A DNA stretch of 64,000 nucleotides from an uncultured Rickettsiales bacterium (GCA_964405685.1 CAYOOP010000001.1:334922-398921), one strand, 5' to 3'. Positions 28,331 to 61,219 are shown, counted from the stretch's first letter. Notes: generated by a model from the sequence alone, not told the origin. Made by a program: numbers and translations.

Positions 28331-29239
28331 CTAAATCGCGCCGCCTAAACGTTGAAGTACTTGGTCTAGTTCAGCAAGGGTTTCATAGGCAATCACCACC
28401 TCACCGCTCGATCCGCGATCTTCAATCCGCACTTTGAGACCGAGATTTTCGGAAAGTGTCTCTTCCAATGCCAAAATATCCGGATCTTTCGGGCGAGTGT
28501 ACTGCTCTTTCGCTTCCTTGCGGGGTTTGGGGGGCTGCCCTGCCCTGCCCTTGGCCATGGCTTCTGCTGCACGCACATTGAGCCCACCGCTAATGATTTG
28601 ATGTGCAAGCGCAACCGGGTCATCCGCTGCAAGCAGTGCGCGTGCGTGACCCATGGTAAGCTGGCCGCTTGCTAGCATGGCTTTGACTTCTTCAGGGAGT
28701 TTCAGCAAGCGCAAGAGATTGGCGATGTGGCTACGGCTTTTACCGACTGATTCACCGATCTCCTCCTGCGTATATTGAAACTCAGCAATTAAGCGATCAT
28801 ACGCACGAGCCTCTTCCAGTGGGTTCAAATCTTCACGCTGAATGTTTTCAATGAGCGCAACTTCAAGCGCATCATCATCCGTCATTTTACGAATGATGAC
28901 AGGCACTTCTGTCACACCCGCCATTTGTGCAGCGCGCCAGCGGCGCTCGCCGGCGATAATTTCGTAGTCTCCGCCTTTTTTTTGGCGAACAATAAGGGGC
29001 TGGATAATGCCTTTCTTCTCGATTGACTGTGCAAGTTCGTGCAGGTGCTCTTCGTTAAACACCGTACGCGGCTGATAGGCTCCGGGCTTGAGCTTGGAAA
29101 CCTCCAAGGTTTGCGGAGCTGTAGCACCCACCTTACTGGGCGCAGAGGCTTGCGGCCGCTCCATCGTTGCGACATTGCTATTGGTTTCGGCAATGAGCGC
29201 CGAGAGGCCTTTTCCAAGTCCACGTTGTACTTTTACCAT
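28331..29239 (-). CDS. parB: chromosome partitioning protein ParB
   Basis: 302 aa with ParB box IIAGERRWRAA, an HTH region QEEIGESVGKSRSHIANLLRLL, and a C-terminal dimerisation domain. Confidence 0.95.
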   Translation of the reverse strand: MVKVQRGLGKGLSALIAETNSNVATMERPQASAPSKVGATAPQTLEVSKLKPGAYQPRTVFNEEHLHELAQSIEKKGIIQPLIVRQKKGGDYEIIAGERRWRAAQMAGVTEVPVIIRKMTDDDALEVALIENIQREDLNPLEEARAYDRLIAEFQYTQEEIGESVGKSRSHIANLLRLLKLPEEVKAMLASGQLTMGHARALLAADDPVALAHQIISGGLNVRAAEAMAKGRAGQPPKPRKEAKEQYTRPKDPDILALEETLSENLGLKVRIEDRGSSGEVVIAYETLAELDQVLQRLGGAI

Positions 29240-29259
29240 ATTGTTTCTCCCTATCGTTT

Positions 29260-30060
29260 TTAAGCGGCTTCGGTTGTTTTTGTGTGGGCTTCACGCTTTA
29301 GAATTTCAGCGGCCAGCTTCAAATAGGCGCGTGAACCGGTGCACTGTGTATCGTAAATGATCGCCGGTTTTCCATGCGATGGCGCTTCGGAAACGCGTAC
29401 GTTTCTGGGCACAACCGCATTGTATACAAGATCCCCGAAATATTCACGCACATCCCATTCGATTTCTTTGGAAAGATGGTTGCGCTTGTCAAACATGGTG
29501 AGCACAATGCCTTGGATCACAAGGCCCGGGTTGAGGTTGCCCTTAACAAGCTCGACGGTTTTGAGCAAATGGCTCAAACCCTCCATCGCATAGAACTCTG
29601 TTTGCAACGGGATTAATACGGAATTTGAAGCGGTTAGAGCATTAATAGTGAGCAGACCCAAAGAAGGCGGGCAATCGATCAATATGTAATCGTAAGAGCC
29701 AGAGGTTTTTCGCAATGCGTTTTGCAGCTTATATTCACGCTTCATCAGGCTTACAAGCTCGATTTCAGCACCCGACAAATCCATATTTGCGGTGATAATG
29801 GACAGGTTTGGAACCATGGTTTTATGGATTGCTTCCGATGCGTCCACGCCGTCAATCAGAAGATCGTAAGATGTGGTGACGCGTTGTTCCGGATCAATGC
29901 CAAACCCGGTGCTGGCGTTACCCTGTGGGTCGAGGTCTATTACTAATATTTTTTTACCAACGGCGGCTAGGGCGGTTGCTAAATTGACGGTGGTGGTGGT
30001 TTTTCCGACGCCGCCCTTTTGATTGACAACGGCGATAATTTTAGCTTTTGACTTGGCCAT
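29260..30060 (-). CDS. parA: chromosome partitioning ATPase ParA
   Basis: 266 aa with deviant Walker A NQKGGVGKTTT and DLDPQGNAS. Confidence 0.95.
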   Translation of the reverse strand: MAKSKAKIIAVVNQKGGVGKTTTTVNLATALAAVGKKILVIDLDPQGNASTGFGIDPEQRVTTSYDLLIDGVDASEAIHKTMVPNLSIITANMDLSGAEIELVSLMKREYKLQNALRKTSGSYDYILIDCPPSLGLLTINALTASNSVLIPLQTEFYAMEGLSHLLKTVELVKGNLNPGLVIQGIVLTMFDKRNHLSKEIEWDVREYFGDLVYNAVVPRNVRVSEAPSHGKPAIIYDTQCTGSRAYLKLAAEILKREAHTKTTEAA

Positions 30061-30631
30061 GGCTGGTAACTCCGTATAGCTTTAAGATGCAATGCGTCGG
30101 GGAAGTGACGCTTGGAAGTTGTTCCACGTGAAAAGACCATTTTTTATTCGCCGTGTCCAGTTCTTTATTTGAAAACTCTGTTTTATGTAAAAAATAAATT
30201 GTATCACTGTTTCGAATACGTGATGTCGATTCTAAAATAGTGTCGATGGCAGAAAATGCTCTCGACGTAATTATTTTCACACCATCTATTTTTAAATTTT
30301 CGATTCTAGAATTGTAAACGTAACAATCATCGAGTGAAAATTTTATTTTTGCCTCTTCCAAGAATTGACATTTTCGTCGATCGGATTCGACGAGGTGTAT
30401 TTTTTTAATTCCGGCAATCGCCAAAATAATTCCTGGGAACCCACCCCCAGTTCCAACATCGACCAATTCAGTTTCATGTGGAACATGATCGATAAGTTGG
30501 AGAGAATCTAAAATATGACGATTCCAGATATCCTCATCCCTGGCCATCAGGTTGATTTTACCATTCCATTTTTCAAAAAAATTCTGGAATTTCCTAAGTC
30601 TTGATTCGGTTTCAGGGGCAATAAAGACCAT
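30041..30631 (-). CDS. rsmG: 16S rRNA (guanine527-N7)-methyltransferase
   Basis: 196 aa with SAM motif DVGTGGGFPGIILA. The stop overlaps the parA start by 20 nt. Strikingly low GC: hand counts of 25-32% on lines 30181-30360. Confidence 0.9.
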   Translation of the reverse strand: MVFIAPETESRLRKFQNFFEKWNGKINLMARDEDIWNRHILDSLQLIDHVPHETELVDVGTGGGFPGIILAIAGIKKIHLVESDRRKCQFLEEAKIKFSLDDCYVYNSRIENLKIDGVKIITSRAFSAIDTILESTSRIRNSDTIYFLHKTEFSNKELDTANKKWSFHVEQLPSVTSPTHCILKLYGVTSHGQVKS

Positions 30632-32491
30632 CTAAGCGGCCTTATTATTTGCTTTTTTCACCGCCGCGATCAATATGCTGAGGGCAGCAGGCGTCATCCC
30701 CTGAATCCGACCCGCCGCCATAATGCTGGCCGGCCGATGAGTTTTCAATTTCGATTTTATCTCATTAGAAAAAGAAGGGATGATATCATAATCAATTTCA
30801 TCGGGAATAGTCAGGGCCTCTTCCTTTTTATAGAGGTCGATGTCCAATTGCTGACGTTCTAAATATCCAGAATAGCGTGCCTCGATTTCAATTTGCTCTA
30901 ACACATCCAAGGAAATAGATGCCGACTCCGGCCATAGTTTTTGAACCGTTTCAAATCCAAAATTGCTATAAGAAAGAAGGTCCGTTGCCGTCCTGCGAAT
31001 ACCGTCTTGATTCAAGTTGATATCAAGTTTTTTGGCTTCCGTTGGAGTGACGTTCCACTCTAAAAATTGCTTTTTCCACGCCTCAATTTGCCCCTGTTTT
31101 TTTGTAAAATGCTCGGCACGTTCGGGCGAAATAAACCCACGTTTCAATCCTTTTTGGGTCAGCCTCGTGTCCGCATTATCAGCACGAACAGAAAGGCGAT
31201 ATTCTGATCTGGAAGTAAACATACGGTATGGTTCTTTGGTTCCATGGGTCACCAAATCATCAATCATAACACCGATATATGCATCACTGCGATCAAGCAC
31301 AAACGGCTCATTCGACACCAACGAGATGGCCGCATTAAGGCCGGCGATAAGGCCCTGACCGGCGGCTTCTTCATAGCCTGTGGTGCCATTGATTTGGCCC
31401 GCCAAGTAGAGGCCTTTGACACGTTTTGTTTGTAGAGTATGGAGCAATTCTCTGGGGTCTACAAAATCATATTCAATGGCGTAGCCGGGACGTATCATCC
31501 TTGCGTTTTCAAGCCCAGCAATGGTCTTCAAAAGCCCGAGCTGAACATCCTCAGGAAGGGAGGTAGAAATGCCATTAGGGTAAACCGTCGAATCGTCCAA
31601 GCCTTCGGGTTCCAAGAAAATCTGATGTTTTAATTTATCAGCAAACCGCACGACCTTGTCTTCAATCGATGGGCAATAGCGCGGCCCCGTCGACGCAATT
31701 TGGCCCGAATACATCGGCGCGCGATGCAGGTTGGCACGGATGATGTCGTGGGTCTGTTCGCTCGTGTGGGTAATAAAACAATCAATCTGTGGTACCGTGA
31801 CTTTCTTGGTGAGAGTTGAAAACGGGGTAGGGCAGACATCGCCCGGTTGGCGGACGAGCCGGTCCCATTCAATCGTATTTCCGTCCAATCGCGGCGGGGT
31901 TCCCGTCTTCAAACGGCCGACATTAAACCCCGCATCGCGCAGCGTTTTTGAAAGGCCATAGGATGGGTTTTCATTCACGCGGCCGGCCGGAATTTTCTTT
32001 TCACCGATGTGAATTAATCCGCTTAAAAACGTGCCCGTCGTGAGCACTACGCGGCACGTGGTGATCGATTCTCCGCTCCCAATAATCACCGCTTTCACTT
32101 CGCCGTTTTCAATGGTGATATCTTCAACGCTTGCTTCGACAATTTCAAGGTTCGGATAGTTGCCAAGCACATCCTGCATCGCCGTTTTATAGAGTTTGCG
32201 ATCTGCCTGCGCGCGCGGGCCCCAAACGGCAGGGCCCTTTGAACGATTGAGCATTTTATAATGAATCCCCGCGCAATCAATTACACGTCCCATCACACCA
32301 TCAAGCGCATCGACTTCTTTGACTAGCGTACCCTTCGCAATACCGCCAATCGCCGGATTGCACGACATCTCGCCAATAGTTGCAAATTGATGGGTAACGA
32401 GTGCTGTCTTCGCACCGGCGCGCGCGGAAGCCGCTGCAGCTTCACAGCCGGCGTGTCCGCCTCCAATGACTACGACATCAAAATGTTTCAT
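30632..32491 (-). CDS. mnmG: tRNA uridine 5-carboxymethylaminomethyl modification enzyme MnmG (GidA)
   Basis: True start is ATG 32491 ([19 protein letters not shown]). The 15 extra codons in the track ORF ([14 protein letters not shown]) are the translated upstream palindromic repeat. Confidence 0.95.
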
Positions 32492-32507
32492 ATTTTTGTT
32501 CTCCTGG

Positions 32508-32568
32508 ATCCCCGCCTGCGCGGGGATGACAACCATCTAAAGCAGCAAGCCGCTAAGATGGTTGTCAT
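32508..32568. repeat. tandem hairpins filling the mnmE-mnmG gap (GTCATCC-type GC hairpin plus a 13-bp-stem hairpin)
   Basis: ATCCCCGC-CTGC-GCGGGGAT spans 32508-32527. ATGACAACCATCT (32526-32538) pairs with AGATGGTTGTCAT (32556-32568), and this second hairpin overlaps the mnmE stop codon. Confidence 0.7.
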
Positions 32569-33851
32569 TTGCCGATACAAAACGTTGAAAAGACGACGTC
32601 CAATACATCATCCACAGCAATTTTTCCAGTGATTTTGCCAATCTCACGCGCGGCGAGCCTGAGTTCCTCGCATTTAAGCTCTAAGGGCAGGGGTGTTTGT
32701 GCTTGTTTTAGGCAGATAAGCGCAGCTTCCAGATGCTGACGATGGCGGGCACGGGTGATGATGGGTGAAGCGGAAGAAACGCTGTTTTCAATCCGGTCTT
32801 TAATTGCCGCAATCAACGCTTCCAAGCCTTCACCCGTCTGCGCGGAAATAGCAAGCACTCCGGGCTGTTTTCTACCCAAATCCGCCTTGGTAAGCACACA
32901 CAGCGCATCGGGCTTTGGGGCAGGGCAGGGTGCGTCCATCAGCCACAGCACCAAATCCGCATTTTCAGCGCGTTTGAGCGCGCGTTCGATGCCGATGGCC
33001 TCAATAGACTCAGCACGTTCACGAATCCCTGCCGTATCAATCAAGGTGACGGGATAACCACCAATGTCCATGTGCACCTCGAGCATATCCCGTGTAGTGC
33101 CAGCAATATCAGAAACAATTGCAATATCGCGCTTAGCGAGCGCATTAAGCAGGGTAGACTTGCCGACATTGGGAGCGCCCATAATCACGACGGAAAAGCC
33201 TTCGCGGATACGTTCACCAGCGCCGTTATCGGCGAGCAGGCTTTCGATCTGCTCCCCGGTTTTCTGCAGGGTTACGCCGAATTGAGCGAGGGTTTCTTCG
33301 GGGATATCTTCATCCGGAAAGTCAATATAGGCCTCAATTAAGGCCAAGGATTGAATGATGGAATTTCTAAGCTTTTGATATTGCTCAGAAATAACACCAG
33401 AAAGCTGGGTTAGGGCTTGTTCGCGCTGACGCTCGGTTTCCGCCTCAATCAGATCCGAAAGGGCCTCCACCTCCAGCAAATCGAGCTTACCGTTTAAAAA
33501 CGCGCGGCGCGTAAATTCCCCCGGCTCAGCAAGTCGCATGCCCCTCATCTCACACAGACATTTTAAAAGCGTTTGAATGACGGCGCGGCTGCCGTGGGTA
33601 TGCAACTCCACCACACCCTCGCCCGTAAAGCTGGCTGGAGCATTAAAATAGAGTACTAGCGCGCGATCAATCTCTGTGCCCGTTGTCGGATTTTTGAGGG
33701 TTTTAAGTTGGGCAACCCGCGGTGGTGGCGCATGGGATGTGGTAAGCGCTCCTAGCGCTTCCAATGCACGGGGTCCGGAAATGCGGATAATCGCCACGCC
33801 GGATTTGCCCGGTGGCGTTGCCAGCGCAACGATGGTCGTTTCATGAGCCAT
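32565..33851 (-). CDS. mnmE: tRNA modification GTPase MnmE (TrmE)
   Basis: Start at ATG 33851 (MAHETTIVALATPPGKSGVAIIRISG). G1 motif GAPNVGKSTLLNAL. C-terminal FCIGK is the hallmark. Confidence 0.95.
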   Translation of the reverse strand: MAHETTIVALATPPGKSGVAIIRISGPRALEALGALTTSHAPPPRVAQLKTLKNPTTGTEIDRALVLYFNAPASFTGEGVVELHTHGSRAVIQTLLKCLCEMRGMRLAEPGEFTRRAFLNGKLDLLEVEALSDLIEAETERQREQALTQLSGVISEQYQKLRNSIIQSLALIEAYIDFPDEDIPEETLAQFGVTLQKTGEQIESLLADNGAGERIREGFSVVIMGAPNVGKSTLLNALAKRDIAIVSDIAGTTRDMLEVHMDIGGYPVTLIDTAGIRERAESIEAIGIERALKRAENADLVLWLMDAPCPAPKPDALCVLTKADLGRKQPGVLAISAQTGEGLEALIAAIKDRIENSVSSASPIITRARHRQHLEAALICLKQAQTPLPLELKCEELRLAAREIGKITGKIAVDDVLDVVFSTFCIGK

Positions 33852-33937
33852 AAATATCTCTTTAATGCCACAGGGTTCGCAGGTATAGCTAAAACTCGGC
33901 ATTTATCAATATTCTGTAAACCTTTTGGGACTAGCTT

Positions 33938-58033: not shown

Positions 58034-59023
58034 TTAGGCCTCCTTACAACAGCCAGAGAATGTTTTTGGACATACCCTGTTTTCACACGCACGCTCATCT
58101 AGCACAAGTTGTTTTAGCGCAGCGATGTAATCGTAAATCACGCCAAGTGTCGGCACACGCACATACTGGGTAACACCGCTTTTTTCTGCCAAGTGGCGAT
58201 ATTCAATATCAAGCTCCACAAGTGTTTCCGAATGTTCGGAAACGAAGGCGATGGGTACTAGCAAAACAGATTTTCCTTGGCTTCCCGCGCGGATAATTTC
58301 TTGATCGGTCGATGGCCCAATCCATTCCAGTCTCCCCACGCGGCTTTGGTAGCAAACCGCATAATCAAGTTGTGGCTGCGCCAGCTGACTAACGACCGCC
58401 TGCACGGTTTGTTCAACCTGCCATTGGTATGGGTCTCCGGCTTCCACTATCGGTTTTGGCAAGCCATGCGCCGAAAATAAAATGCGCATGCCGTCTTTGT
58501 ACGCTTGTTGAATAAGTTTCACATGCGCCGCAATAAACGCAGGATGGGTGGAGTAGCAGCAAATCTCTTTGGTAGGAAGTTTGAGTCCTAATTTTTTCCA
58601 TTCCTTAAAAGATGATGCTGTGGTGGTGGTCGAAAATTGAGGATACAGCGGCAATAAAATCACCTTATCGGGCGCATGGGCTTTCACCTGTTTTGCAACA
58701 TTTTTGGCCCGCGGGTGCCAATAGCGCATGACGATAAATGTTTTATATTCACCATGTTCTCTAAGAGCGATTTCAAGCGCTGTCGCTTGTTTTTGTGTTT
58801 CTTCCACAATCGGTGATTTACCACCCATTTGCGCATAAATTGTTTGCGCTTTTTTGTTACGAAGCGAGGAAATAAGCGTCGCCAAAAAAAGGCGTAAAGG
58901 AAGGGGAACCCGAATGATCGCTGGGTCAAAAAATAGATTAAATAAAAACGGTCGCACCGCTTTTAAGCTATCGGGTCCACCTAAATTAAATAGGATTACC
59001 GCAGTTTTTTGAGCCATGTGCAA
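58034..59023 (-). CDS. hemH: ferrochelatase
   Basis: 329 aa (alternative start M3 at 59017). ILFNLGGPDSL, RYWHP and VSEHSETL motifs. Cys-rich C-terminus CENRVCPKTFSGCC. The stop abuts the hemJ start. Confidence 0.93.
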   Translation of the reverse strand: MHMAQKTAVILFNLGGPDSLKAVRPFLFNLFFDPAIIRVPLPLRLFLATLISSLRNKKAQTIYAQMGGKSPIVEETQKQATALEIALREHGEYKTFIVMRYWHPRAKNVAKQVKAHAPDKVILLPLYPQFSTTTTASSFKEWKKLGLKLPTKEICCYSTHPAFIAAHVKLIQQAYKDGMRILFSAHGLPKPIVEAGDPYQWQVEQTVQAVVSQLAQPQLDYAVCYQSRVGRLEWIGPSTDQEIIRAGSQGKSVLLVPIAFVSEHSETLVELDIEYRHLAEKSGVTQYVRVPTLGVIYDYIAALKQLVLDERACENRVCPKTFSGCCKEA

Positions 59024-60018
59024 AGTGCTTCCAGATTTTCAGGTGGCGTAAATTGAATCACCCCATGCCCGAGATTAAAGATATAGGGTTTTCCCTTCAT
59101 CTCGTTCACCAGCCTTTCGGCTTCTTGAAGGATTTTTTCTTTGGTTCCATAGGCCAAAATCATCGGGTCTAAATTGCCTTGCAATACACAGCTGGTTTTT
59201 TCTTTTACAAACGAAACGGGTGTAAATTGATCGATGCTTACACCATCGACTCCTGTTTCGTTTGCGAATGTCGAAATATTTACCCCCGCTCCGCGTGGAA
59301 AACCCATAATGGGTGTATGGGGTTGGCGCTTTTTTAGCTCTGCAACAATCTTTTTAGTGGGTGTAACCACATACCGAGAAAATATTTCTATGGGCGCTGC
59401 ACCTGCCCAAGAATCAAATAGCTGCACGACATCCGCACCGGCTTTAATTTGATTATCTAAATGCAAAATCACTGCTTCGGTAAGCGTATCAATTAAACGG
59501 TTAAATAGGGTAGGGGTAGCAACGGCCATTTTTACTGCTGCATCAAAATTGCGACTACCCTTACCTTCCACCATATAGCACGCAAGTGTCCAGGGGCTTC
59601 CTGAGAAGCCGATAAGCGTCTTCTCCTTAAGGGTGCTCGCAAGAGTGTCTACCGTCTCGTAGACAGGCGCTAGATGGCTAGAAATACGTTCCAATGAAAG
59701 TTTTGAAATCTGCTCTTCGGTTGTGGTGGGCTCTAACCTTGGTCCTTCACCTTTTTCAAACACGACATTTACGCCAAGCGCATCTGGAATCACTAAAATA
59801 TCCGAAAACAAAATCGCAGCATCCATATCGAATCGGCGAATAGGTTGGAGTGTTACCTCCACTGCTAATTTCGGATTATAACAAAACTCTAAAAAGTTCG
59901 GAGCTTTTGCCCGAAGTTCACGATACTCCGGTAAATATCGCCCCGCCTGTCTAAAAAACCAAAAAGGAATTTTCTCCTTTTCATTTCCTGTAAGTACATC
60001 TCGCAAGATTTTATTCAT
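58996..60018 (-). CDS. hemE: uroporphyrinogen decarboxylase
   Basis: True start is ATG 60018 (MNKILRDVLTGNEKEKIPFWFFRQAGRYLPEYRE). The 27 upstream codons of the track ORF run into the AT-rich intergenic region. Confidence 0.93.
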   Translation of the reverse strand: MNKILRDVLTGNEKEKIPFWFFRQAGRYLPEYRELRAKAPNFLEFCYNPKLAVEVTLQPIRRFDMDAAILFSDILVIPDALGVNVVFEKGEGPRLEPTTTEEQISKLSLERISSHLAPVYETVDTLASTLKEKTLIGFSGSPWTLACYMVEGKGSRNFDAAVKMAVATPTLFNRLIDTLTEAVILHLDNQIKAGADVVQLFDSWAGAAPIEIFSRYVVTPTKKIVAELKKRQPHTPIMGFPRGAGVNISTFANETGVDGVSIDQFTPVSFVKEKTSCVLQGNLDPMILAYGTKEKILQEAERLVNEMKGKPYIFNLGHGVIQFTPPENLEALCTWLKKLR

Positions 60019-60189
60019 TCTAAAATTACTTATCTTTATAAGAAAAGGATTGAAGTAGTAGTAGGGAGTAGGTCTAACGTGGACGGTTTGATTATGCAAA
60101 GGTTATGCAGATGAAGGTTATAGGAAATAATACACATACAAACTTAGCAGCCTATTATTTACTATCGATTTTCTACCATTTCTGAAAAA

Positions 60190-60198
60190 AGTGGATAA
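60190..60198 (-). promoter_or_regulatory. DnaA box-like 9-mer (TTATCCACT, 8/9)
   Basis: The plus strand reads AGTGGATAA. With the next box it forms the inverted pair GTGGAT-N8-ATCCAC. Confidence 0.45.
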
Positions 60199-60202
60199 AA
60201 AC

Positions 60203-60211
60203 TCATCCACA
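60203..60211 (+). promoter_or_regulatory. DnaA box-like 9-mer (TCATCCACA, 8/9)
   Basis: Read directly from the sequence. Confidence 0.45.
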
Positions 60212-60234
60212 TCGTGTATACAAACTTCTTTACC

Positions 60235-60243
60235 TGTGGAAAA
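60235..60243 (-). promoter_or_regulatory. DnaA box-like 9-mer (TTTTCCACA, 8/9)
   Basis: The plus strand reads TGTGGAAAA. Confidence 0.4.
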
Positions 60244-60290
60244 CCGCTGAAGGAGAATCGTGCAAACGTGCACATTTAAAGATTCACAGA

Positions 60291-60299
60291 TTATCCACA
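60291..60299 (+). promoter_or_regulatory. DnaA box, perfect consensus TTATCCACA
   Basis: Read directly: ...cacagaTTATCCACAgtgtt... Confidence 0.6.
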
Positions 60300-60350
60300 G
60301 TGTTCTACATAGGTTGTGTACACGCTTTCGTTGATAACATGTGAAACCCC

Positions 60351-61184
60351 ATGAAAACATTCCACTTACACCTTGTGTCAGACTCGACCGGCGAAACGGT
60401 GGGCAGTGTTGCCCGTGCTGCCCTCGCGCAATTTGAAGATGTGGACGCCGAAGAGCACAACTGGACGCTGGTGCGTACCAAAACGCAAATCGATCGTGTG
60501 ATTGCTAATATCGACGAATTCCCCGGCATGGTGCTTTACACGCTGGTCGACAAACAACTCGGTGAAATGCTCAAAAAAGCCTGCCAGAAACACGGTCAAC
60601 CCTGCATCGCTGTGCTGGCCCCTGTTGTTAACGAGCTCTCCGCCTATCTTGGCGAGGAAACCCAAGCCGCCCCCGGCAAACAACACCAGATGGACGAAGA
60701 ATATTTCTCCCGCGTCGACGCCATCAACTACGCACTCTCGCATGACGACAGCCAGGGGCATTGGGATTTGGACGGCGCTGATATTATCTTATGCGGTCCC
60801 TCACGCACCTCCAAGTCACCCACCTGTGTCTATCTCGCCTATAAAGGCTTCAAAGCCGCTAACGTCCCCTTCGTACTCGGCATCGATTTACCGCCCGGAC
60901 TATTTACAGCGAAAGACGCACTCATCGTCGGCCTTACCATCTCGCCTGACCGCCTCCAACAAATCCGCAAAGAGCGTTTAAACTCACTGAAACAGGAAGA
61001 CACCAGCTATGTGGACGTTGAAATGATCCACAAAGAAATCGACGAATCACGCAAGCTGTTCCGCCAGCAAGGCTGGCCGGTGATTGACGTCACCCGAAAA
61101 TCTGTCGAAGAAACCGCGGCTACCATCTTGCAATATCACCAGAATCTCATGAAGCAACGCGAGCAAAAAGCCGAGCATTCCTAG
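60351..61184 (+). CDS. pyruvate,phosphate dikinase / PEP synthetase regulatory protein (DUF299, RP001-type)
   Basis: 277 aa with N-terminus FHLHLVSDSTGETV and P-loop GPSRTSKSPT. This family includes Rickettsia prowazekii RP001. Confidence 0.88.
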   Translation: MKTFHLHLVSDSTGETVGSVARAALAQFEDVDAEEHNWTLVRTKTQIDRVIANIDEFPGMVLYTLVDKQLGEMLKKACQKHGQPCIAVLAPVVNELSAYLGEETQAAPGKQHQMDEEYFSRVDAINYALSHDDSQGHWDLDGADIILCGPSRTSKSPTCVYLAYKGFKAANVPFVLGIDLPPGLFTAKDALIVGLTISPDRLQQIRKERLNSLKQEDTSYVDVEMIHKEIDESRKLFRQQGWPVIDVTRKSVEETAATILQYHQNLMKQREQKAEHS

Positions 61185-61219
61185 GTGACATCCCGCAATT
61201 TCCTTGCTAAACCAACACC

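Follow-up and report, generated by a model that had tools for sequence, protein, structure and literature searches.

The window analysed here is a 64,000-nucleotide stretch from an uncultured Rickettsiales bacterium, corresponding to C1:334922-398921 on contig C1 of the source genome assembly (1.89 Mb, 16 contigs, 52% GC). It contains a 332-bp intergenic gap (60019-60350, or C1:~395 kb) that is a candidate chromosomal replication origin (oriC). The gap separates two divergent genes. To its left, on the minus strand, lies hemE, encoding uroporphyrinogen decarboxylase (58996-60018; TIGR01464, 380 bits against a cut-off of 303), and to its right, on the plus strand, lies a PDRP/DUF299 gene of the RP001 type (60351-61184; COG1806; NF003742, 340 bits). 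An earlier interpretation of the same DNA (the sequence-only reading) had given precisely these boundaries and flanking genes and had described the gap as AT-rich, which agrees with its GC content of 36% compared with 52% for the genome. The 60-67% GC which it quoted for rho and the PDRP gene is too high for the whole genes, since 200-bp windows give 0.45-0.59 in rho and 0.51-0.58 in the PDRP gene.

Four sites in the gap match the DnaA box with no more than one mismatch. The perfect box, TTATCCACA, is located on the plus strand at 60291-60299, 51 bp before the PDRP start codon, and a box in the plus orientation is found 10-60 bp before that start codon in nearly all related gaps. The other three match at eight of nine positions: TTATCCACT on the minus strand (60190-60198), TCATCCACA on the plus strand (60203-60211) and TTTTCCACA on the minus strand (60235-60243), the last aligning with a conserved block 'CAC.TGTG.ATAa'. 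The first two of these are the halves of an inverted pair, GTGGAT-N8-ATCCAC, which spans 60191-60210 and whose GGATA-N-TATCCAC arrangement is kept in the gaps of relatives. All four box positions, as well as the inverted pair, had been located exactly by the sequence-only reading. Closer to hemE are two weak boxes arranged in tandem on the plus strand, TTATGCAAA (60092-60100) and TTATGCAGA (60103-60111), with two mismatches each, which align with a conserved 'T.ttatcCaC....ttat.caca' block. A degenerate minus-strand box, CGTGGACGG (60078-60086), has four mismatches and stands where relatives have a conserved TGGGGAT(T/A)A or CGTGGATAA box. The two clusters of boxes are separated by a variable spacer (60112-60189; ~70% AT, with a duplex free energy, dG, of -32.5 to -35), where the aligned gaps differ most in length and are conserved least.

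This cluster is without parallel in the assembly. Across the 1.89 Mb there are 19 perfect and 421 one-mismatch DnaA boxes, giving an expectation of ~0.08 per 332 bp, and the gap is the sole 400-bp stretch with four of them (all within 110 bp); every other stretch has two at most. At this stringency the gap is the unique maximum of the genome. When two mismatches are allowed the gap again ranks first, with eight boxes in 350 bp, although the runner-up windows hold seven and the margin is thus smaller. The 64-kb window as a whole contains 21 boxes, compared with 10.5 ± 3.0 in shuffled sequences.

Related loci were gathered by a related-genome search and two collection scans, which yielded about 40 with divergent hemE and PDRP genes, spanning the family and the order; the related metagenome-assembled genome (MAG) records are deposited as 'Rhodospirillaceae bacterium'. 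The related gaps are 270-615 bp long (one is 1,067 bp), lie 5-21 GC points below their own 3-7 kb loci and carry 1-9 boxes each at up to one mismatch. They are beyond BLAST similarity, yet the gaps of 20 genera align into fixed blocks, and the box array is kept in position across about 30 of them in genomes ranging from 27% to 62% GC. Reading from hemE, these blocks comprise an AT-rich stretch at the hemE start, a GTAGTAGTAGT block with (TAG)3-4, a 13-15-nt spacer, the TGGGGAT(T/A)A or CGTGGATAA box, one or two TTATCCAC boxes, a variable spacer, the GGATA-N-TATCCAC inverted pair, a CAC-TGTGGATAA block, a GGATAA box and, just upstream of PDRP, TTATCCACAGG. The boxes of the window land in these family blocks.

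The hemE-proximal end of the gap has features of an unwinding region. A repeat resembling DnaA-trios, AAG TAG TAG TAG (60053-60064, plus strand), reads 3'-GAT GAT GAT GAA-5' away from the boxes, in agreement with the DnaA-trio consensus, and belongs to the block conserved as GTAGTAGTAGT; it contains at least three consecutive NAN trios, including the preferred 3'-GAT-5'. The motif TAGTAGTAG has just six copies on both strands of the genome, and the copy in the gap alone has AT-rich DNA alongside. That DNA, distal to the trios at 60019-60052, is 79% AT. The least stable 30-mers of the whole window begin at 60008-60018 (spanning 60008-60047), with a dG of -28.5 kcal/mol against a mean of -42.2 and a standard deviation of 3.4, the least stable of all lying at 60011-60041. 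This least stable duplex directly adjoins the trio block, so that the DNA unwinding element is probably the tract at 60008-60052, which overlaps the first hemE codons and is AT-rich at the same place in the family alignment. The sequence-only reading had put the unwinding element at 60100-60190; that segment is a poorer candidate because it is only moderately AT-rich, least conserved and rich in insertions and deletions.

The arrangement resembles the basal unwinding system, whose order of elements has been tabulated for some 1,750 origins besides those of B. subtilis and E. coli (PMC8287927). As in incC of Bacillus subtilis (Pelliciari et al. 2021), the strand runs from an AT-rich tract through (TAG)n and a ~13-nt spacer to a box in the TGTGGATAA orientation, and the four NAN trios of the gap read 3'-GATGATGATGAA-5', identical to the trios predicted for Geobacter. 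The published rule asks for a DnaA box with at most two mismatches in a fixed orientation, no more than 16 bp from the trios, with a spacer mode of 10-13 (PMC8287927). Five relatives (L005, L008, L020, L022 and L026) comply with the box rule, their homologous box having one or two mismatches and a spacer of 13-15 nt.

Compositional polarity in relatives points to the same gap. In G036, a complete relative from the same taxonomic order (one contig of 1,861,815 bp), the GC skew steps from ~0 to +0.09 exactly at the hemE/PDRP gap (1,393.7k, at 10-kb resolution). Sampled values there are +0.05 to +0.11 from ~1,425k through 0 to ~380k, with one negative sample at 190k, and ~0 elsewhere, and the opposite switch occurs near 475-570k. 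A search with the E. coli dif 28-mer allowing up to seven mismatches gave no match, whereas a looser arm pattern recovered a conserved dif-like site, CG(C/T)ATAA-TATATA-TTATG, present in one copy each in G036, G005, G012 and G024. The G036 copy (CGTATAA-TATATA-TTATG) at 464,012 is 929 kb from the gap, which is half of the 1,862-kb circle. The replichore from 464k to 1393k in G036 has essentially zero skew throughout and the other has +0.05 to +0.11, an unusual asymmetry. In G005, a member of the same family (1.43-Mb contig of a genome of about 2.0 Mb), the skew is -0.05 to -0.10 to the left of the gap and +0.13 to its right, is positive at the sampled points of 300, 600 and 850 kb, and goes negative past the dif-like site, 1,047 kb from the gap. 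In G012, the skew steps from -0.09 to ~0 at the gap. On the basis of these skew steps and the dif-like geometry, the hemE/PDRP gap is the origin at the level of the family and the order.

Taken together, the genome-unique box cluster, the conserved array and the skew step and half-chromosome dif-like spacing in relatives support the oriC proposed by the sequence-only reading, and we regard the gap as the likely chromosomal oriC of this uncultured marine alphaproteobacterium. Among the features of hemE-linked origins, the gap has the intergenic position, the maximum of DnaA-box clustering and an AT-rich region of ~40 bp. A GC-skew shift at the locus is seen in G036, G005 and G012 and is absent from the source genome.

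Several observations in the source genome itself weigh against this assignment, among them the missing polarity switch. No skew step occurs at the gap on C1, with raw GC skew of ~-0.01 left of it and between -0.03 and -0.10 right of it, and the weak negative skew runs on for 98 kb rightward. At fourfold sites the strand-corrected values for the left and right sides are -0.055 and -0.085 (p = 0.3), and polar G-rich octamers split 14:16 and 23:18 on the same two sides; such octamers, found de novo, are strongly biased elsewhere in the genome (57:14 for GGGCAGGG and 73:8 for CGGGGATG). The cumulative GC-skew check suggested by the sequence-only reading formally fails in this draft, since the C1 minimum lies not at the gap (395 kb) but 145 kb from it, at ~250 kb, where the sharpest negative-to-positive switch of the contig is found and the gene strands switch too. 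The genes rpoB and rpoC (C1:402-411k, minus strand) are head-on to forks that would leave the gap. The dif-like site of the source genome (ACCGCATAA-TATATA-TTATGGAAGT, C2:251903-251930), homologous to the single-copy sites of relatives and on a different contig from the gap, has the wrong polarity, the skew and polar octamers to its left pointing away for 74 kb. The strict box rule of the basal unwinding system is not obeyed because the trio-proximal CGTGGACGG, which fits in orientation and in its 13-nt spacer, has four mismatches where at most two are allowed. Finally, a rearrangement sets the PDRP flank apart from that of every relative.

This rearrangement can be followed in detail. In the source genome, the PDRP gene abuts hom at a lineage-specific junction (61185-61219), whereas the order in about 40 related loci is PDRP-aroE-coaE-dnaQ. 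The aroE-coaE-dnaQ genes of the source genome are at C3:65.3-67.4k. In relatives, 130-220 kb separate hom-glpX from the origin, and the pair follows an aminotransferase gene whose copy in the source genome is at C3:184k. Since aroE-coaE-dnaQ and the aminotransferase gene, which are flank genes in relatives, are now on C3, a block of ~120 kb (C3:65274-185552) has left the origin flank in this lineage only. The block retains a weak skew within the strongly skewed contig C3. No repeats that would suggest a mis-join are found at the PDRP/hom junction. An exact-pattern scan of metagenome contigs for the junction gave no matches, and a protein-based scan returned only relatives with at most 69% identity, every one with the ancestral PDRP-aroE order.

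The failure of the skew check is not decisive, because the PDRP flank is rearranged, because G036 combines a zero-skew replichore with an opposite dif-like site, because the polarity at the dif-like site of the source genome is wrong as well, and because the 165 kb surrounding the gap carry almost no polarity signal of any kind. An inversion of the DNA or an error in scaffolding may account for the inverted polarity at the dif-like site; C2 is a scaffold, and its skew jump at 177.6k coincides with a run of N. With the polarity wrong at this site too, the assembly or the genome is structurally unusual. We conclude that the compositional test in the source genome is uninformative rather than contradictory, and GC skew is itself not a universal predictor of origins (PMC1914354). 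Whether an orthologue is leading or lagging in relatives is not conserved in the clade (68 same, 61 different), which leaves the derivation of fork direction from orthologue strand without power here.

Further to the left on C1, a positive-to-negative skew switch is located at 330 kb, and the 80-kb segment C1:250000-330000 has a skew and a gene-strand bias opposite to those of both flanks. Because the skew and polar motifs of C1:0-250k are directed away from the gap, as those of a hemE-side replichore should be, the segment resembles an inversion in a replichore whose polarity is otherwise correct. An origin at the C1:~250k switch itself, among hemC, tsaD, dusB and metZ-like genes, was considered and rejected, as there is no AT-rich intergenic box cluster: two DnaA boxes nearby lie within the hemC coding sequence, and a 602-bp gap, as read from its sequence, appears to hold two small minus-strand open reading frames (ORFs), possibly a toxin-antitoxin pair. 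The hemC-tsaD gap at this sharpest C1 switch (C1:249117-249230, 145 kb left of the origin gap) contains a palindrome of inverted CTAACGA heptamer repeats. An origin linked to dnaA was likewise rejected, dnaA being at C2:26.6k with no box cluster nearby. An RNA element in place of an origin was discarded as well, with no Rfam match and no consensus structure from RNAalifold in the hemE-proximal part.

The observations in the source genome could also mean that the gap is an ancestral origin locus which is now inactive or no longer the sole origin, or that an assembly error affects the surrounding contig and replication starts at another site, such as one past the right end of C1. The absence of a skew or polar-motif step, the weak negative skew over 98 kb, the head-on rpoB and rpoC, the odd polarity at the dif-like site and the unique breakpoint immediately after PDRP all fit this reading, as does the fact that the trio-proximal box and the two adjoining tandem boxes are more degenerate than those of relatives. 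However, no second DnaA-box cluster exists anywhere in the assembly, and the other negative-to-positive skew switches (C1:250k, C5:40k, C6:70k and C2:250k) are without one; C1:250k, the switch whose sequence was read, lacks an AT-rich gap in addition. The perfect box, the three 8/9 boxes and the intact trios have been retained, and this argues for continuing selection. G036 too has a skewless replichore, despite a dif-like site opposite its gap, and the repeat-free PDRP/hom junction offers no explanation for a mis-join. A relic or mis-assembled locus is therefore judged unlikely.

A related explanation is that a hemE-type origin has become uncoupled from compositional polarity in this lineage, either through very recent, large-scale reshuffling of DNA near the origin and the terminus alike or, more radically, through a move of initiation to some site that lacks a recognisable box cluster. 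It is suggested by the transposed ~120-kb block, the 165 kb without polarity around the gap and the inverted polarity at the dif-like site; we hold it to be quite improbable.

The boxes might instead belong merely to a DnaA-regulated promoter region serving hemE and PDRP, with no origin involved. Both promoters must lie in the gap, one promoter-like site is indeed present at 60131-60158, and the box conserved immediately upstream of PDRP might serve as an operator, DnaA boxes being able to act as such in transcription. The number of promoter-like sites is no higher than in shuffled sequences, however, and at least seven conserved box positions together with trios and an AT-rich tract far exceed what an operator needs. 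Such regulation would also explain neither why the skew of relatives steps at precisely this gap nor why their dif-like site is half a chromosome away, and in Caulobacter the origin has been mapped experimentally to the hemE/DUF299 intergenic region (PMC6393856). This alternative is thus very doubtful. A chance grouping of box-like words, for which one may cite the raised local expectation of TTATCCACA-like words in AT-rich DNA and the near tie at two mismatches (seven boxes versus eight), can practically be dismissed given the unique genome maximum at up to one mismatch (four against ~0.08) and box positions conserved between 27% and 62% GC.

The preferred assignment agrees with what is known of other Alphaproteobacteria. 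The origins of Caulobacter crescentus (Cori) and Rickettsia are located between hemE and the COG1806/DUF299 gene (PMC1914354; PMC6393856). Cori and the Rickettsia prowazekii origin share with the gap their boundary genes and divergent layout, their AT-richness relative to the genome and the possession of several DnaA boxes (PMC1914354, PMC6393856), and they are of similar size (404 and 384 bp, respectively, compared with 332 bp here), with parAB-gid-mnmE-rho nearby in each case. In Azospirillum, oriC is flanked by yqfL and hemE, carries six DnaA boxes and is 12 kb from parAB (bioRxiv 10.64898/2026.09.14.751567). This genus likewise belongs to a Rhodospirillales-type lineage; its origin shares the flanking genes and has about six boxes in mixed orientation, with parAB ~12 kb away rather than 30 kb as here. 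Azospirillum differs in being a cultured multi-replicon genus of higher GC, and the comparison is one of gene context and box content. In the clade relatives aroE-coaE-dnaQ comes after the DUF299 gene. A similar cluster of this type is reportedly shared by Caulobacter and Rickettsia, as Brassinga et al. are said to have noted in 2001; in the source genome, unlike in Cori and Rickettsia, it has moved away from the PDRP gene.

Other differences from Cori concern its regulators. No TTAA-N7-TTAA CtrA site occurs in the gap even at one mismatch, and 31 homologous gaps contain no perfect site where 2.1 would be expected and 19 near-matches where 33 would be, so that the absence of CtrA sites noted by the sequence-only reading extends to the relatives. 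The ctrA gene itself is present in the source genome (NF045991, 413 bits). The IHF consensus WATCAANNNNTTR has no perfect match in the gap and is perfect in two of the 31 related gaps. A Caulobacter-style CtrA-controlled origin has several CtrA sites, overlapping DnaA or IHF sites, and an IHF site; the weak G and W boxes of Cori also contrast with the boxes of the gap, which are near the E. coli consensus. Control of this origin appears to be DnaA-centred, and the lack of CtrA sites agrees with the published view that only some Alphaproteobacteria place their origin under CtrA (PMC6393856; PMC1914354). The gap is very probably an ordinary hemE/DUF299-linked alphaproteobacterial oriC, of the same kind as the Cori, Rickettsia and Azospirillum origins, and is set apart from these kin by its near-consensus boxes, its putative DnaA-trio-like module and its lack of CtrA and IHF sites.

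The layout suggests how initiation might proceed. DnaA would occupy the array at 60078-60299, with its one perfect, three 8/9 and several weaker boxes, partly in inverted pairs. A DnaA-ATP filament would then grow from the box nearest to hemE onto the (TAG)n trio strand at 60053-60064 and would melt the AT-rich tract at 60008-60052 at the hemE start, where the helicase could be loaded and from which forks would depart both ways.

In the wider neighbourhood, hemE is succeeded on its side by hemH, hemJ and rho, followed at a distance of 26-32 kb from the gap by the origin-proximal markers parB-parA-rsmG-mnmG-mnmE (28331-33902, minus strand; NCBIfam matches), so that parAB-rsmG-mnmG-mnmE and rho are all within 32 kb of it. 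Two weak parS-like 16-mers (30120-30135 and 30470-30485), with three mismatches each to TGTTTCACGTGAAACA, are located inside rsmG near parA and parB. On the other side, hom, glpX and lgt come after PDRP. The divergent orientation of genes around the gap, which the sequence-only reading had reported, does hold from 52.2 kb to the window end; it is only local, there being plus-strand ORFs at 50.3-52.2 kb and minus-strand rpoB and rpoC past the window. The latter belong to a rplA-rplJ-(rplL)-rpoB-rpoC group at C1:402267-412871, 3-14 kb beyond the window end and transcribed toward the gap. Inside the PDRP ORF, at 61024-61032, is TGATCCACA, presumably identical to the moderate-affinity G-box known from Cori of Caulobacter. 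Cori likewise reaches into its duf299 ORF (PMC6393856).

The current understanding of bacterial replication is unchanged by this finding, and the draft genome analysed here is one in which GC skew alone would misplace the origin. The locus adds a data point on hemE-linked origins outside Caulobacter and the Rickettsiales that are without CtrA sites and have a DnaA-trio-like unwinding module. For a family of uncultured marine alphaproteobacteria, the origin and, by homology, the dif-like terminus site are now fixed, which is of use in orienting MAG assemblies, in estimating growth rates from peak-to-trough ratios in metagenomes and in designing vectors.

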